A stretch of 32,000 nt of DNA from Promethearchaeota archaeon (GTDB lineage: Archaea > Asgardarchaeota > Lokiarchaeia > Sigyniarchaeales > Promethearchaeaceae). The stretch is from NCBI GenBank assembly GCA_016933055.1, contig JAFGBS010000002.1, positions 60,001 through 92,000 on the forward strand. The letters run 5' to 3'. Each line of letters begins with the position of its first letter. The first letter of the stretch is position 1. Below the pieces are notes generated by a model. That model was not told the origin of the DNA and did not search any database. It saw only the letters and a list, made by a program, of their open reading frames with translations. The position numbers and the translations under genes were made by a program. Of the stretch, positions 10,923 through 18,762 are shown piece after piece.

Positions 10923-10931
10923 AAAAGGGAA

Positions 10932-11064
10932 TGGGACAGGAGAGAATTGAACTCCCGACCACTCGGCTTCTGTACTATGTTAAATTAGTTCCCCAGCCGA
11001 GTATCAATCCGGTTACCTCCCCATTATGACAACGGGGAGAAATACCAGGCTAGACCACTGTCCC
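10932..11064 (-). tRNA. tRNA-Pro(GGG) with two introns: D-arm 21/22 (11007-11042, 36 nt) and canonical 37/38 (10968-10990, 23 nt)
   Basis: Spliced product GGGACAG TG GTCTAGCCTGGTA^TGAT A CTCGG CT GGG G^G CCGAG TGGTC GGGAG TTCAATT CTCTC CTGTCCC A folds as a cloverleaf. The anticodon is at 10994-10992. Both junctions fall in 3-nt bulges of relaxed BHB motifs. CCA is not encoded. Confidence 0.88.
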
Positions 11065-11162
11065 ACGTATTATATTTTAGAAGTATATTATCATATTCAT
11101 GAAGTTAAAAAAATTTTTCTATATCGCTAGATTATCAAGAATACTGGAATAATTTTCATTAA

Positions 11163-11237
11163 GGGTCCGTAGTCTAGCCAGGATAAGGTGCTGGCTTGCG
11201 GAGCCAGTTGTCGCAGGTTCGAATCCTGCCGGACCCG
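11163..11237 (+). tRNA. tRNA-Arg(GCG)
   Basis: Acceptor GGGTCCG/CGGACCC, G73, anticodon arm CTGGC-TTGCGGA-GCCAG (GCG at 11198-11200), T-arm GCAGG-TTCGAAT-CCTGC. No intron. Confidence 0.97.
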
Positions 11238-12134: not shown

Positions 12135-15100
12135 ATGGTAAATGCAGTTGGACAACCTCCACAAAATCCGAAAACCAATTTTGAAGATTTTTTTAGAAAC
12201 TACGAAGATAGCCCTAATCACTTCAAATATTTAGAAGAAATACAAAATGCTGCATTACGTAAAATCCAGTATATCTATGTCCTATTCGAAGACATTTTGT
12301 ACTATGATCCCTCCTTAGCAGAAATCTTACGGAAAGAGCCAGAAGAAACTTTAAAGCAAGGAGTGGATGCATTTAAAGATTTATTAAGGTATTATTCAAG
12401 AGGAAAGATCGACGATAAAAGGGACTATTTCGTTCGAATCACCACCAATAATAATTCTAATGAAGTAAATCTAAGAAAACTCCGAGCGGAGCATATTGAT
12501 AGACTTGTATATATTCATGGTATCTTGATACGAGCTTCTCAAATTATCCCACAAATCACTGAAGCAATATTCGAGTGCCCTGTCTGTCAGTTAGAAACCC
12601 GAGTTGAGCAAATTGAAAATGCTTTGATCGTGCCCAAACAATGTTCTAACTGTAAAAACAAATCGGGATTTATGGTAAAATCTAAGGACTCAAAATTTAT
12701 TGATTGGCAAAGTATTCAAATCCAAGAGTTACCCGAAGAATTGCAGCCAGGTCGTGTTCCTTATTCGATTAAAGGAATCCTAACGCACGATTTGGTGGAT
12801 ATTACTCGCCCTGGAGATCGCGTGAAAATCACTGGAATATTTAAAACCTATGTGAATGAAAATTCTCGAGGTAAAAAAACCACTCTCTTTACGCCTTATA
12901 TGAAAATCCTTAGCATTGAAGCACAGAACACAGAAAGAGATGCGTTGGATATAAGCCCCGAGGATGAGAAAGAATTCAAACGGCTTGCCGCAAAACCTAA
13001 TATCCAAGAGATTATTGCACGTTCTGTAGCACCATCCATTTTAGGAATGGACCACCTCAAAATGGCAGCTGCTCTTGCTTTATTTGGAGGAGTAAGGAAA
13101 CAAATGAAAGATGGGAGTGCACGTCGTGGGGATATTCATGTTTTATTCGTAGGAGATCCCGGTACAGGAAAAAGTATTCATGGAGACGAAAAAGTATATA
13201 TCGGTTATCCCGTGGAAAAAAAAATCAAATGGAATCAAATCCCAATAGGAGATCTTATTGATAATTTAATGAATGACAACAGGGAGGATATACTATCAAT
13301 AAATGGTTCGGAAATACTTCGATTAAATGAGAAAAATCAATTATTCACAGCTTCATTTAATTCTGATACATTTAAAACCCAGAAAGCAAAAATTATTGAA
13401 GTTAGTAGACATCAGACGGATAATTTAATTAAAATAACCACAAATTCAGGTCGGAGAATACTAACTACTCCCGATCACTCATTCAGTACTATCATTAACG
13501 GTAAACTAAAAGTGTTAACAGCAAATCAACTAAATCAAGAAATCTATCTTCCTGTCGCCAGACATCTGGAATTAAATGATTCACTAATAAGTAATTTTGC
13601 TGATATGACTATAAATATCCTTGAAAACGAAAATATAAGCGCCAACAATATTCATGAACCATGTAAATTATTAAAATCTAATCATATTGGGAAAATGGAA
13701 GCATGTGAAAATGCAAATATAACTCATGGAACATTTAATATATATACCGGCAATTTGGGTTCACTACCAAGAGGAGATTGGATAAGAACCAAGTTTGACA
13801 CACCGTGGTTTCCGAGAACCATACCATTTACTGAGGAATTCGGGAGATTAATTGGTTCTTATTTAGTTGAAGGAAATTCAGAAAAAACCATATTAAAGAT
13901 TACTAATACGAATGATGAAATTAAGAATATTCTATATTATGATTTTCACAAAATCTTTCAAAAATCTATTATCATCGAGAATGGATGCCTTTTATATCAA
14001 TCCAACATATATAAATGGTTTAAGATAAATTTTGGAACTTGTGCTACCAATAAGAAGATTCCATACCACTTTTTTATGACACCGAAGAAATTCCGTAAAA
14101 GCATACTCTCTGCATATTTTAGTGGAGATGGGTGGATTGAACTGAAAAGTGCGACTTTAAATGTATTAACCAAAAGTAAAGGATTAGCACTGTCTATATT
14201 GGATCTTCTAACTACTTTTGGTATTTATGGTTCCTATCATATTAAAAAGAAGAAGAAAGGGGAATATACGGATAATAAATATTACCAAATTAAAATCACA
14301 GGAAAAGAACTATATAAATATGCTAAGCTGATAGGATTTATTTCTGCGAAAAAACAAAGAACCCTTGAATCATTTGTCAAAACTTGGATTAGCCGTAAAC
14401 GATATCAATCCAATGACATAATCCCGAATATCGGGAATTTAATTAACGATGTAGATAATCAACTTGAACATGTCGGAAAACGAAGAAGTAGGGAAAGAAG
14501 TTATAAAGGAGAACTCTGGGCAAAAAACTGTAGACAACGAGTAGAAAGAATTTATTTACAAAACAAAGTTGAAAAATTAAAGGAGATATTTGAACAAAAA
14601 AATAAAGCATACTCAGATGAGTTACTACGTTTAGAGCAACTAGCTTATTCCGATATTTTTTGGGATACAATTATTTCTATAGAACCAGTAAAAGGAAAAT
14701 TCCTTGTATATGATATTGGTACCTCAGATGGACATTTTGTGGTTGCGAATGGTAACTTGATTGTGCATAACAGCCAGATTTTGAAGCAATGTGCGCATAT
14801 ATCCCCACAAGCAATTTATGCTTCCGGTAAAGGTTCTTCAGCTGCGGGACTTACTGCTGCTGTAGTCAGAGAAAACGATGCCGCGGGTCTATCGTTAGAA
14901 GCAGGTGCTCTGGTTCTTGCTGATGGAGGAAATGCAATTATCGACGAATTCGATAAAATGGATAATCGGGATCGTGTAGCTATCCATGAAGCTATGGAGC
15001 AGCAAAGTTATCACCCACAAACAGAAATTTTGACTACTTACGGTGAAAGAATTCAAATCGGAAAATTTGTCGACTTTTTGATGAAAAACCATTCCCAACA

Positions 15101-17042
15101 GGTGATTCAAGGGATTAATTGTGAAATTTTACCCACTTCAATCGTGGAAATCTACAGTTCAGATTTTGAAAAAGTGTTTAAAACAAGAATTGACCGAATA
15201 AGTAGACATAAAGCTCCTAATTTTTTTTGCAAAGTCAAATTTTCTAATGGACGATCGGTTATCGTCACTCCAGAGCATCCTATGTATGTGTTTAAGAACG
15301 GCGAGATTATGACCATCCCTGCTGAATATTGTAAAGAGGGGGATTTTATACCAGCTCCCTCATTTCTACCAAACTCTAGTGAACCTATAGAATTAGAGGG
15401 ACTTATTCCACCACTAGATTCAAATTCTAAGACAATTTTCCTACCAAGGAGTCTTAACAACAATATTGCACGTATTTTGGGATATCAGATTGACATAGAT
15501 CAATATTGTTGGGGATCAGCAGTAGAAATCGGATTTTCTAGTAAGGTTCTCACAGTGATCAATGATATTACACAATTATGTCAAAACGAATTTCATCTCA
15601 GTCCTACGTTTTCCACGCAACCAAATGGATTAATTACGTTGCATTTTAATTCTTTGGAATTATGTAGATGGTTTCATGCAAATTTTAGAGAAATACTGAA
15701 ATCAGACCGATATAAACGAATACCATCGAAAATCATGGCTGGAAGTAAATCCATAGCACGCTCCTTTCTCCAAGCCGTATTTAAAAAAAATGGTAGAATA
15801 AAATCGGATTCCATATGTTACCAGAGTAGATCCGATGGATTTTCAAGAGACATTCAAGATTTACTCCTCAAATTAGAAATACGATCCCGTATCATTCAGG
15901 AAATCCATAATCATGACTCCTATCAAGTACAAATTTGTGCTCATAGTTATTTAAAATTCTTTAGACTAATAATTGAGAAAGATGACAAACGGTTCAATAA
16001 GATTCTGAATCTGGTGAAGAAGAGTCCCCAGCCAAATGATCATAGAAAAATTCATTGGGAACACATCACAGAAATCCGGAAAATTTCTAATAAAGGAGAG
16101 TATTTCACTCCGTGGGTATATGATATAACCGTAGAACCCAATCATACCTTTATTTCTCAAGGCGTAATTCTTCATAACACGGTTAGTGTCGCCAAGGCAG
16201 GTATAATTGCGACTTTGAGGGCTCGTACATCCATTATTGCTGCTGCAAATCCGAAGATGGGACGATATTCTGAATATAAAACTCCTTCAGAAAACATTAA
16301 TTTAAGTCCCCCGATCCTTTCTAGGTTCGATCTTATTTTTATAGTAAAAGATACTCCCGATGAAACTTTTGACCAAGAAATTGCAGACTTCATCTTGGAT
16401 ATGAACACCGAGGATGCGTTAACAAATACGGGAACCAACAAAGATCCTATTATACCAGGTGATGAGCTACAGAAATATATTAAATATGCTCGAAATAAAG
16501 TTGTTCCAAAATTAACCCCAGAAGCTCGAAAAGTGATTCGAGATTTTTATGTGGATCTACGAAAGGTAAATAGAAATGATGAAAATGCAGCAATTGCAGT
16601 TGTTGCAAGAAATCTAGAAGGTTATATCCGAATAGCAGAAGCATATGCAAGAATGGCTTTACGTAATTATGTAACCAAAGAGGATGCCGAAGATGTTTTA
16701 AAACTAGCTCGAAGGAGTCTAGACGATACTAGTAGAGACCCCGACACAGGAAAATATGATGCCGATCGAGTATTAACCGGAATATCAGCAGCACGAGCAA
16801 AAATTGTCGGATTTTTAGATGAACTCAAGAAGAAGATTGATGCTAATAATGGGCAACCTATTGATGAGGATCAATTTCTGGCAGATCTGGAATTTGATAA
16901 GGATATCGAAGGATCGAAACTGAGAAAATTATTAGAAAATCTTGTAAATGAAGGTACAGTTTACAGACCAAGTCCTGGCAAAATAGACTTATGTCCAGAT
17001 AGTGAAAAGGATGATATTCAGTTAAAAAATAAAAAAAAATAA
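12135..17042 (+). CDS. mcm: MCM replicative helicase precursor with two inteins (mature protein about 711 aa)
   Basis: LRKLRAEHIDRLV, Zn finger CPVC...CSNC, Walker A GDPGTGK|SQ, Walker B IIDEFDKM, HEAMEQQ|TVSVAKAG, AAANP, ILSRFDLIF, ARNLEGYIR, C-terminal winged helix. Confidence 0.97.
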   Translation: MVNAVGQPPQNPKTNFEDFFRNYEDSPNHFKYLEEIQNAALRKIQYIYVLFEDILYYDPSLAEILRKEPEETLKQGVDAFKDLLRYYSRGKIDDKRDYFVRITTNNNSNEVNLRKLRAEHIDRLVYIHGILIRASQIIPQITEAIFECPVCQLETRVEQIENALIVPKQCSNCKNKSGFMVKSKDSKFIDWQSIQIQELPEELQPGRVPYSIKGILTHDLVDITRPGDRVKITGIFKTYVNENSRGKKTTLFTPYMKILSIEAQNTERDALDISPEDEKEFKRLAAKPNIQEIIARSVAPSILGMDHLKMAAALALFGGVRKQMKDGSARRGDIHVLFVGDPGTGKSIHGDEKVYIGYPVEKKIKWNQIPIGDLIDNLMNDNREDILSINGSEILRLNEKNQLFTASFNSDTFKTQKAKIIEVSRHQTDNLIKITTNSGRRILTTPDHSFSTIINGKLKVLTANQLNQEIYLPVARHLELNDSLISNFADMTINILENENISANNIHEPCKLLKSNHIGKMEACENANITHGTFNIYTGNLGSLPRGDWIRTKFDTPWFPRTIPFTEEFGRLIGSYLVEGNSEKTILKITNTNDEIKNILYYDFHKIFQKSIIIENGCLLYQSNIYKWFKINFGTCATNKKIPYHFFMTPKKFRKSILSAYFSGDGWIELKSATLNVLTKSKGLALSILDLLTTFGIYGSYHIKKKKKGEYTDNKYYQIKITGKELYKYAKLIGFISAKKQRTLESFVKTWISRKRYQSNDIIPNIGNLINDVDNQLEHVGKRRSRERSYKGELWAKNCRQRVERIYLQNKVEKLKEIFEQKNKAYSDELLRLEQLAYSDIFWDTIISIEPVKGKFLVYDIGTSDGHFVVANGNLIVHNSQILKQCAHISPQAIYASGKGSSAAGLTAAVVRENDAAGLSLEAGALVLADGGNAIIDEFDKMDNRDRVAIHEAMEQQSYHPQTEILTTYGERIQIGKFVDFLMKNHSQQVIQGINCEILPTSIVEIYSSDFEKVFKTRIDRISRHKAPNFFCKVKFSNGRSVIVTPEHPMYVFKNGEIMTIPAEYCKEGDFIPAPSFLPNSSEPIELEGLIPPLDSNSKTIFLPRSLNNNIARILGYQIDIDQYCWGSAVEIGFSSKVLTVINDITQLCQNEFHLSPTFSTQPNGLITLHFNSLELCRWFHANFREILKSDRYKRIPSKIMAGSKSIARSFLQAVFKKNGRIKSDSICYQSRSDGFSRDIQDLLLKLEIRSRIIQEIHNHDSYQVQICAHSYLKFFRLIIEKDDKRFNKILNLVKKSPQPNDHRKIHWEHITEIRKISNKGEYFTPWVYDITVEPNHTFISQGVILHNTVSVAKAGIIATLRARTSIIAAANPKMGRYSEYKTPSENINLSPPILSRFDLIFIVKDTPDETFDQEIADFILDMNTEDALTNTGTNKDPIIPGDELQKYIKYARNKVVPKLTPEARKVIRDFYVDLRKVNRNDENAAIAVVARNLEGYIRIAEAYARMALRNYVTKEDAEDVLKLARRSLDDTSRDPDTGKYDADRVLTGISAARAKIVGFLDELKKKIDANNGQPIDEDQFLADLEFDKDIEGSKLRKLLENLVNEGTVYRPSPGKIDLCPDSEKDDIQLKNKKK
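13173..14771 (+). mobile_element. Intein 1 in MCM Walker A (533 aa) with LAGLIDADG homing endonuclease
   Basis: Inserted between GDPGTGK and SQILK. Starts with Ser (SIHGDE), block B TTPDH, ends IVHN. LAGLIDADG blocks LIGSYLVEG and LSAYFSGDG. Confidence 0.93.
15006..16178 (+). mobile_element. Intein 2 in MCM (391 aa) with degenerate homing endonuclease
   Basis: Inserted between HEAMEQQ and TVSVAKAG. Starts SYHPQTE, block B VTPEH, ends ILHN. Endonuclease blocks read ILGYQIDIDQ and LQAVFKKNG. Confidence 0.93.
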
Positions 17043-17065: not shown

Positions 17066-17275
17066 TTACTCAAGATTTATAGCAAGCTTCATGTCATCTT
17101 CAGTTAATTTCTTTCGTTGGGCATGTCGAGATAGTTCTAATGCTTTATTTGTTAATTCTTTTGCAATATATTCTAAATGAGCAATTAACTCATCTACAGC
17201 TTCTCGACTGACCATTTCTGCCCCACAACTCTTCATTAACTCTTTAATAGGGGACCAGGCAAATACTTTTGGCAT
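17066..17275 (-). CDS. Archaeal histone (HMf-like, tailless)
   Basis: Histone fold FAWSPIKELMKSCGAEMVSREAV...SRHAQRKKLTEDDMKLA. Confidence 0.93.
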   Translation of the reverse strand: MPKVFAWSPIKELMKSCGAEMVSREAVDELIAHLEYIAKELTNKALELSRHAQRKKLTEDDMKLAINLE

Positions 17276-17431
17276 GATAGTTTCCTCCGCAATTTTTTTT
17301 GTTATTTTGTATAGAAGCCCTTTTCAGAGCAACTATGAACTATATGTGGGATTCCATTAATAAATTTAACGGAATATGAGGTTTTGGAAGAGATTTTGCG
17401 AGTTCGACAAAAAGTAGGGAAATTGTAATTT

Positions 17432-17502
17432 CTGCCAGATCTGAAGGACCGGGGCACTGATTCGGAGATCAAATTGTGAAATCACATCTCCATCGGCAGT
17501 GC
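17432..17502. ncRNA. Candidate structured RNA element of unassigned class
   Basis: About 52% GC island in an AT-rich intergenic region with several helices: GCACTG/CAGTGC, GGAGAT/ATCTCC, CTGCC/GGCAG, GATCT/AGATC. Confidence 0.4.
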
Positions 17503-17670
17503 AATAAAAGAGTAGAAAATTACGAATTTGTTAATCAGAAAACCCCTAAAATTTCTTCAACAAATTAAATTATCCAATTTTTCTTCGTAAATGGACTATT
17601 TATAGAAATTTAAAAAAACGATCCGATGTTCCCAATTATTTATCTTCAAAGAGTTTCTACTATGATGTGT

Positions 17671-18762
17671 ATGAAATCCAAAAAGATTGCATTGATCATG
17701 GGTGATGGGATTGGCAAAGAAGTAATTCCTGAGGCAAAACAAATATTGCTTACTATCGCAAATCATACCGATCATCGATTTGATTTTCTAGAAATTCCTG
17801 CGGGTGGAGAGGTCTGGAAAGAGACAGGACAATCCATAACCGATGCTTCTTTTGAAAAATTAAGAACTGTAGATGCCATTGTATTAGGTGCACTGGGTAT
17901 ACCCGGACTACCGCAAGGTGTAGCAGAATATGCAGTTCTAAAAATTCGACAAGAATTCAATCAATATGTGAATTTACGTCCCATTTTTCTTTATGAACCC
18001 TTGAGGGATATCTGTCCATTAAAAGATGAATTTATTGGGGATGGAATTAATATGTTCATTCTCAGGGAAAATAGTGAGGGAATTTATTCTAAGATCGGAG
18101 GTAAAGTTCAAGATCGGGCCACAATCGATACTATGATCTTTACAGAATTGGGAGTAAAGCGAATCTTAGAGTTTGCATTTGAGTTTGCCCACAAAAAAAA
18201 TCATACGAGGATATGTTCCGTAGATAAAGCAAATTTACTATATACTTCTACGATGTGGCGATCTATGTTTAAGGAGCTGGGGGAAAAATATCCAAATTTA
18301 GAAAAAAAGAGCTATTACATAGATGCGTTTTGCCAGTGGTTAATTCGAGCACCCTATCAATTTCAGACTGTAGTGAGCTCGAACATGTTTGGAGATATAA
18401 TCAGTGATGAAGCTGCATTTTTAGCAGGATCATTAGGTATGGTAGCTAGTGCAAATCTTAATCCAAGTCCAAATGGAATTTCTATGTTCGAACCAATTCA
18501 CGGCTCTGCACCTGATATCGCTGGAGATAATATCGCAAATCCCATTGCATCTATTTTATCCATAGGATTAATGATGGAACTGGTATTTGCAGATTCATAT
18601 ATAGGGGAAATTCTGCATCATTCCATCGCAAGTGTATTAGAAACCCATCGAACTCCTGATATTTACCCCAAGATTAAGGAGAAACCCAAAGTAAAAAAAG
18701 TTACTACGCAGGAAATGGGTAAATTAATTCAGAACATAGTTTCAAATGAATTACGTAAATAG
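17671..18762 (+). CDS. Isocitrate/isopropylmalate dehydrogenase family enzyme (LeuB-like; could be homoisocitrate or tartrate dehydrogenase)
   Basis: GDGIGKEV, YVNLRP, RENSEGIY, SVDKANLL, NMFGDIISDEAA, FEPIHGSAPDIAG. Confidence 0.88.
   Translation: MKSKKIALIMGDGIGKEVIPEAKQILLTIANHTDHRFDFLEIPAGGEVWKETGQSITDASFEKLRTVDAIVLGALGIPGLPQGVAEYAVLKIRQEFNQYVNLRPIFLYEPLRDICPLKDEFIGDGINMFILRENSEGIYSKIGGKVQDRATIDTMIFTELGVKRILEFAFEFAHKKNHTRICSVDKANLLYTSTMWRSMFKELGEKYPNLEKKSYYIDAFCQWLIRAPYQFQTVVSSNMFGDIISDEAAFLAGSLGMVASANLNPSPNGISMFEPIHGSAPDIAGDNIANPIASILSIGLMMELVFADSYIGEILHHSIASVLETHRTPDIYPKIKEKPKVKKVTTQEMGKLIQNIVSNELRK

Follow-up and report, generated by a model that had tools for sequence, protein, structure and literature searches.

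A conserved motif array upstream of the Lokiarchaeial histone gene, with a candidate small-RNA element at its distal end

The main histone gene of Loki-type Asgard archaea is preceded by about 140-200 nt of conserved promoter-upstream sequence with GATCT and TTTTGTCGRA boxes, and its leader contains a covarying stem-loop. The comparison of related loci favours a view of the upstream sequence as control DNA to which proteins bind at the histone promoter, a reading held with a probability only somewhat better than even (roughly 0.55). In the window, i.e., the whole stretch of 32,000 nucleotides that was analysed, the distal end of this region falls within a 71-nt element (17432-17502), which the initial annotation had described as a candidate sRNA or a switch between two mutually exclusive hairpins, termed here Fold A and Fold B. 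This candidate mostly dissolves, and what remains is the comparative result on the histone upstream region. To our knowledge, almost nothing is known about the regulation of chromatin genes in Asgard archaea. The motifs offer handles for such work, as baits for the regulator, as sites for methylomes and, with the leader hairpin, as an object for testing.

The element sits within a 395-nt divergent intergenic region, with a histone-fold gene on one side and a LeuB-like gene on the other. The features of the locus, including their state in the same-genus genome G001 and in the homologous locus of the metagenome contig L045, are the following:
12135-17042: intein-containing MCM gene, with the gene end at 17042
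17066-17275, minus strand: histone-fold gene, 69 aa (PF00808, 3e-11), 91% identical in G001, owner of the conserved upstream region
17284-17288, minus strand: Shine-Dalgarno site GGAGG of the histone mRNA; GCGGAGG / GTGGAGGAAT is conserved before the ATG across the order
17317-17330, minus strand: stem-loop in the histone 5' leader (GCUCUGAAAAGGGC), with compensating stem changes within the genus
17350-17372, minus strand: 23-nt block with the histone BRE/TATA (TTTATTAA, 17364->17357), invariant in all three genus sequences
17403-17413, minus strand: TTTTTGTCGAA box (plus strand TTCGACAAAAA), the best-conserved upstream motif
17418-17433, no strand: dyad GGAAAT-TGTA-ATTTCT, kept in all three genus sequences though two of the four central bases change
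17437-17442, no strand: AGATCT palindrome (proximal GATCT box; 5' arm of the Fold B outer stem), invariant in the genus
17449-17465, plus strand: inverted repeat CCGGG-N7-TTCGG, giving Fold B its loop and inner stem; CCGAG/CTCGG in G001 and CCGAG/CTTGG in L045
17464-17472, minus strand: distal box TGATCTCC (3' arm of the Fold B outer stem), where conservation ends
17472-17502, no strand: tail specific to the genome of the window, in which lie the 3' arms of Fold A, one K-loop half and CAGTGC, the partner in the pseudoknot
real start most likely 17671, plus strand: isocitrate/isopropylmalate-dehydrogenase (LeuB-like) gene (PF00180)

Homologues of the element were sought by a DNA search in 60 relatives, which returned only G001, and by a pattern scan of metagenomes, which added only L045. 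The comparison at the genus level comprises three sequences in a gap-free alignment, those two and the genome of the window (G000). The wider comparison covers 13 loci of the family (seven genera) and 25 loci of a sister family (~11 genera), and the sequences of these relatives are not independent of each other. For RNA structure, the upstream regions of 23 sister-family sequences were aligned.

Histone orthologues with 65-74% identity were found in every family and sister-family genome examined, and the same ordered motifs precede the orthologous gene in every one of the 13 genomes of the family and, with few exceptions, in the 25 from the sister family. The order runs from the GATCT boxes through TTTTGTCGRA and TATA to the leader hairpin and the Shine-Dalgarno site. 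Across the seven genera of the family, the upstream 300 nt read in histone direction (GATC-N-)GATCTC, an A/T-rich dyad, TTTT(T)GTCGRA, GATCG, TATA (ACATTTAAATAT), CCATA..ATTAGTAG, the leader, GCGGAGG, and ATG, with spacers between the shared motifs that differ in length among genera. Their equivalents in the window are GATCTCC (17472->17466), the TTTTTGTCGAA box, and the TATA box TTTATTAA. The sister family shows the same architecture, better conserved, as an A-run, ATCTCTGATCTAA, GCTCAGA, TTCTTCTCAGACATCGCAA, TTTTGTCGATCGG, GAAATTATTAACC, TATCGAAAAT, ACGCAA, and TATA. The gene order MCM, histone, LeuB is syntenic across G000, G001, and L045, and both the MCM-histone and the histone-LeuB neighbourhoods are limited to the genus. 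The upstream neighbours of the histone gene vary by genus and lie 350-800 nt away. The region thus travels with the histone gene, since flanking synteny is confined to the genus and other genera have different, distant neighbours. Ordered motifs at 38 loci from ~18 genera, kept next to varying neighbours, are what a cis-regulatory upstream module should present, and the comparison shows a motif array that was inherited together with the histone gene across two Lokiarchaeia families, its neighbours notwithstanding.

Single boxes can be followed over the same distance. The BRE/TATA block aligns with ACATTTAAATAT / TTTATATAT of other genera, and TGATCTC of the distal box aligns across all genera of the family and has its counterpart in the sister family in ATCTCTGATCT. 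The outer pair of the dyad at 17418-17433 is G·T in the window and A-T in G001 and L045, and the genus g6 carries GATATATC / GAAATTTC at the equivalent place. The palindrome TTAGATCTAA was likewise confirmed upstream of the histone gene in another genome. Column entropy in the sister-family upstream regions is punctate and without 3-periodicity: boxes of 6-10 nt alternate with spacers of variable length. An RNAalifold consensus fold of the 23 sister-family sequences is empty on the sense strand and has five trivial pairs on the antisense. Short ordered motifs and the lack of a consensus fold argue that protein-binding DNA fits better than a structured sRNA.

The one RNA structure recovered lies elsewhere, in the histone leader, a few nucleotides downstream of the predicted histone start. 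Its stem is GCUC/GGGC in the window, AGCCA/UGGCU in G001, and GUCC/GGGC in L045. In the sister family (L104-L128, alignment A7 columns 20-47), the stem has 9 bp, and six of the nine pairs show double changes; 84% of the cells are paired, against at most 50% when the stem is slid, and none of 500 shuffles reaches that value. By this covariation, the histone 5' leader contains a real RNA stem-loop. The covarying hairpin also places the histone promoter at 17357-64, with a probable transcription start just downstream of that TATA box, and from there the element would lie at about -100 to -140, in the territory of upstream regulators. As the leader hairpin was recovered, the method detects RNA structure in this same data set where it is present.

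Within the genus, conservation spans 17335-17471 and then collapses in the comparison of the window with G001 and L045. The BLAST synteny between G000 and G001 ends exactly at 17471 and restarts at 17633; 17391-17471 is 83% identical, and 17472-17632 is unalignable. The left 40 nt of the element (17432-17471) are ~83-87% identical in the relatives, where the adjoining intergenic DNA is randomised, and the comparison supports selection on these 40 nt. Of the tail, G001 and L045 retain nothing but AAAT and GGCA (17495-98), each with its offset unchanged, and both relatives have a plus-strand T5 directly after the hairpin, which is absent from G000. The alignments thus indicate that the 71-nt element is not one unit: its left 40 nt form the distal end of the conserved histone upstream region, and its right 30 nt are specific to one genome. 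Of the sRNA or switch candidate, the conservation of the left 40 nt and the ability to form Fold B in all three sequences stand, whereas the switch, the pseudoknot, and the K-turn need the unconserved 17472-17502. Conservation by itself does not single out the block upstream of the histone gene, because six of the 13 intergenic regions in the 40 kb of G000/G001 synteny hold conserved blocks of at least 50 nt, one of which covers a tRNA (81% identity). The intergenic block 10923-11124, which adjoins tRNA-Arg, is also conserved, with 77% identity to G001; the tRNA-Arg at 11163 is the sole call of the tRNA/tmRNA scan.

If the upstream region is control DNA, 17432-17471 would be the outermost part of a stretch of ~140 nt of non-coding control sequence (17335-17472) upstream of the minus-strand histone gene. 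In histone direction, the array would comprise the distal GATCT boxes (17472->17437), the GAAAT/ATTTC dyad, the TTTTTGTCGAA box, BRE/TATA, the initiator region, the leader stem-loop, the Shine-Dalgarno site, and the ATG. The boxes may be double-stranded DNA sites for one or more transcription regulators or for chromatin proteins that set the expression of the main histone, and the dyad-symmetric GATCT sites resemble operators of a dimeric factor. Archaeal operators and upstream activating sequences are bound by dimeric factors, such as regulators of the Lrp/Ptr2 or TrmB type. The histone array is like their sites in its short dyad-symmetric boxes, tens to ~100 bp upstream of BRE/TATA, which are conserved with the regulated gene and in which sequence rather than base pairing is kept. 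It differs from them in being unusually long (~140 nt) and conserved across the order. The motif set of GATCT and TTTTGTCGRA is not known to fit a described regulator. Some observations speak against the control-DNA reading. The nearly continuous conservation of 81 nt in the genus is long for binding sites, the substitutions in the dyads have a strand bias expected of a plus-strand RNA, and G001, L045, and the majority of sister-family sequences have a T-run on the plus (antisense) strand after the distal box, reminiscent of the 3' end of an RNA.

The main alternative, possible though rather doubtful, is a short non-coding RNA of ~80-110 nt on the plus strand, running divergently to histone transcription. 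Its start would be near 17394, ~30 nt downstream of AATAAA-TTTAAC on the plus strand of the invariant AT block, and its end near 17472 with Fold B and a T-run, so that it would span from just upstream of CGACAAAA to the T-run by the GATCT box, antisense to histone. Such an RNA would act via its conserved sequence (e.g., CGACAAAAA) or be a promoter-upstream transcript. The profile of the genus, with a TATA block, 18 variable nucleotides (17373-90), a conserved block from 17391, and an abrupt end at 17471, is consistent with it, as are the T5 after the hairpin in the two relatives and runs of T6-T8 after GAGAT(C) in the sister family. However, G000 has no T-run until 17582, and some genera contain an internal T5 on the plus/antisense strand. 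The tRNA promoters of the genome have GAAAAA-TTTAAAT 35 nt before the gene, to which the plus-strand AATAAATTTAAC is similar, but a matrix derived from seven of these promoters, too weak to decide the strand, gives the plus site only 3.2 bits. Divergent or promoter-upstream transcripts of archaea and eukaryotes usually are not conserved in sequence; the putative transcript would resemble them by adjoining a strong promoter, pointing away from it, and having a T-run at the far end in most relatives, and would differ from them by the conservation of the region across the order.

The structural tests of Fold B bear on the same alternative. Fold B can form in G000, G001, and L045, and its outer stem GAUCU/AGAUC is invariant in the genus. 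Each of the three changes in the inner stem is one-sided and yields G·U in the plus-strand reading, A·C in the minus-strand one. When the dyads and Fold B are taken together over the three sequences, every one of the 57 plus-strand cells is paired, and all four one-sided changes are of the G·U type, compatible with pairing on the plus strand only, since the same four substitutions make A·C mismatches on the minus strand. The p-value of this bias under strand symmetry is only ~1/16, and the changes are not all independent. A check for covariation gave no double change: Fold B has no compensatory pair in the three sequences, a sample size at which the shuffle control is powerless. The putative 80-nt plus-strand RNA has fold z-scores of -0.5 to -1.9. 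Fold B is probably largely apparent, because two copies of a palindromic AGATCT box are complementary by necessity; AGATCT is its own complement, so the pairing of the two GATCT boxes needs no RNA. In the sister family, the 4-bp dyad AGAW-N4-WUCU shows weak covariation, but its G·U pairs are on the sense strand, opposite to the bias of the genus, and this, like the lack of a consensus structure in the 23 homologous sequences, weighs against a divergent RNA.

An extension of the control-DNA reading concerns the GATC sites. The tetramer occurs 12.2 times per kb at -260..-60 and 3.0 times per kb elsewhere in the same 38 loci, a 4.1-fold enrichment, and control tetramers of the same composition are not enriched except those inside conserved boxes. 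The genome encodes a D12-class (Dam-type) DNA adenine methyltransferase (PF02086, 9e-70). By analogy, the GATC/GATCT boxes, clustered and fixed in position, might be read through adenine methylation by this enzyme, with hemimethylation after fork passage switching histone transcription, although this is improbable. In bacteria, GATC/Dam-controlled promoters and SeqA-bound GATC clusters occur at dnaA, pap, and agn43, and we know of no such promoter control in archaea. The histone region resembles these bacterial promoters in the GATC cluster upstream of the promoter and the genome-encoded methyltransferase, and differs from them in that G000 has only two GATC sites in the region. If the idea were true, the closest archaeal relatives of eukaryotes would couple histone supply to replication by means of an epigenetic device of bacterial style.

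The TTTTGTCGRA box is present in 12 of 13 family loci and in ~18 of 25 sister-family loci. The genome of the window holds 55 copies, 21 of them (38%) outside long ORFs, DNA that makes up only 12% of the genome. In one place the box precedes a second histone gene (a Lys-tailed paralogue) by 139 nt on the same strand (chance ~0.007), and in another it precedes the D12-class methyltransferase gene by 41 nt. Three copies, on both strands, occur in one 1-kb intergenic region, two other intergenic regions have inverted pairs 30-40 nt apart, and several copies are placed 126-165 nt before a start codon. Recurrences on contigs of the genome include:
C16:187206-187563
C2:65014
C27:31365
C16:209187
C27:140517
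A replication origin, suggested by the MCM gene next door and the repeated TTTTGTCGGA boxes, was considered and rejected: the synteny with MCM is specific to the genus, and the genes by other box clusters encode a polyprenyl synthase and an FAD oxidoreductase, not Orc1/Cdc6. A 10-bp phasing of CpG upstream of the histone gene was also discarded; the histogram of distances goes back to a single inherited arrangement in which CGs occupy two opposite faces of the helix, and there is none in the family.

Transcription of the region in the sense direction, either as a ~200-nt histone leader from a far-upstream start or as a small sense RNA terminated by the T5 in TTTTTGTCG, seems very unlikely. The T5 on the sense strand is conserved, and a TATA-like TTTTATTG (17510->17503) lies ~30 nt upstream of GATCTCC in G000, with a similar one in G001, but this putative upstream TATA is missing in L045 and conservation extends past the T5. 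Runs of T6-T7 inside the region on the sense strand of other genera would stop such transcription, the stems contain A·C mismatches on the minus strand, and the covarying leader hairpin directly follows the proximal TATA.

The original proposal, that 17432-17502 is one structured sRNA or switch with Folds A and B, a pseudoknot, and a minus-strand L7Ae K-turn or K-loop, has even less probability. The description of the letters is accurate. All the complementary segments are present in G000:
17454-59 and 17497-502: Fold A outer pair GCACTG / CAGTGC
17464-69 and 17486-91: Fold A inner pair GGAGAT / ATCTCC
17438-42 and 17466-70: Fold B outer pair GATCT / AGATC
17449-53 and 17461-65: Fold B inner pair CCGGG / TTCGG
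17432-36 and 17495-99: end-closing pair CTGCC / GGCAG
The G+C content given as about 52% measures 52.1% in 17432-17502, compared with 23% in 17503-17630 and 36% in the window. The minus strand does contain the pattern GGAGA-TGT-GA...GA-TCTCC and a T5 (plus-strand A5, 17409-13), and the element lies, as described, outside the TATA boxes of the flanking genes, at 17357-64 (minus strand) for histone and 17636-44 (plus strand) for the LeuB-like gene. None of the listed sequence features is statistically unusual. The minimum free energy of the 71-mer is -19.1 kcal/mol on the plus strand (z -0.64) and -21.9 kcal/mol on the minus strand (z -1.68), where the optimum is Fold A, and between 10 and 50 of 200 shuffles were equal or better. 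K-loop-like patterns (5-bp stem, NNN, GA, loop, GA, stem) occur 11 times in the window and 8.2±2.4 times in Markov-random sequence.

Conservation also speaks against this proposal. G001 and L045 lack the 3' arms of Fold A, the K-loop's right half (17472-91), and the CAGTGC that should pair with the GCACTG loop, although GGCA (17495-98) keeps its offset in the three sequences. A two-state switch is thus not conserved, and neither the pseudoknot nor the L7Ae site survives the comparison. A covariance model of the region (R1, three sequences) found no match outside the genus among the 60 relatives. The alternation of Folds A and B as a riboswitch fails likewise, with Fold A unconserved and no compensatory pairs. 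The Rfam scan gave no match in the element at the gathering threshold or at E<=10, nor any at gathering and permissive thresholds over the window and 10 homologous loci. As read from the alignments, the switch/K-turn model is largely refuted by lack of conservation. In comparison with L7Ae-bound K-turn/K-loop RNAs (C/D and H/ACA guides), the minus strand of G000 can be drawn as a stem, a 3-nt bulge, GA ... GA, and a stem, but the closest relatives have only one half of the motif, its frequency is that of chance, and there are neither C/D boxes nor an ACA box. A C/D box sRNA was rejected on finding no RUGAUGA on either strand of 17380-17502 and no Rfam CD-box match in the element; the two plus-strand CUGA of G000 read CUAA and CCAU in G001 and L045. 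An H/ACA sRNA was rejected as well, for the basal stem is followed by CCCGG on the minus strand and by AAT on the plus strand, and the internal loop has only 4-5 nt per side. A literature search on Asgard small RNAs found nothing relevant.

About equally improbable is a minus-strand micro-ORF, MIS(E/K)(S/M)VPRS(F/L)RSGRN from 17472, as a 15-residue peptide or histone uORF: its start is kept (TTG in G000, ATG in the relatives), three of the four codons differing between G000 and G001 are synonymous, and G001 and L045 have a stop after codon 15, but in G000 that stop is missing and the frame stays open through the histone TATA for 56 codons, the two differences between G001 and L045 both change the residue, a Shine-Dalgarno site is lacking, other genera keep neither the ATG nor the frame, the entropy has no 3-periodicity, and the 'synonymous' changes are identical to those that keep the dyad. 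No reading frame is open in all of G000, G001, and L045, with stops at different places in every frame, and a 62-aa plus-strand ORF of L045 was set aside for its in-frame stops in G000 (two) and G001 (one). A repeat or mobile element was rejected too, the element being single-copy, with no second copy in the 3.76-Mb genome.

The ORF of the LeuB-like gene is listed from 17626, and a conserved TTATTTATC at 17636-44 precedes the ATG at 17671 by 32 nt. The gene of the relatives starts at the Met equivalent to 17671. From this TATA box and the equivalent Met start, the LeuB-like mRNA is probably leaderless from 17671. An attenuator or riboswitch of this gene was rejected, as it has its own conserved TATA at that distance and the 160-nt spacer is unconserved. 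On the other side of the histone gene, the MCM gene of G000 contains an extra insertion of ~1.17 kb, an intein (window ~15007-16178), between ...AMEQQ and TVSVAKAG..., and the MCM of G001 is without the intein and reads AMEQQTVSVAKAG uninterrupted.

In genus g6 (L076, L079, L080, L081), a second module with ~95% conservation (…GAAAAAGATCATATCAAAACCCCCCCATTTTTTTTCTTGCTCGTTTATATTTAG…) is found ~490-400 nt before the histone ATG. It is similar to the distal module in g4 and g5, lies ~220 nt further upstream, and looks like a duplication of the control module.
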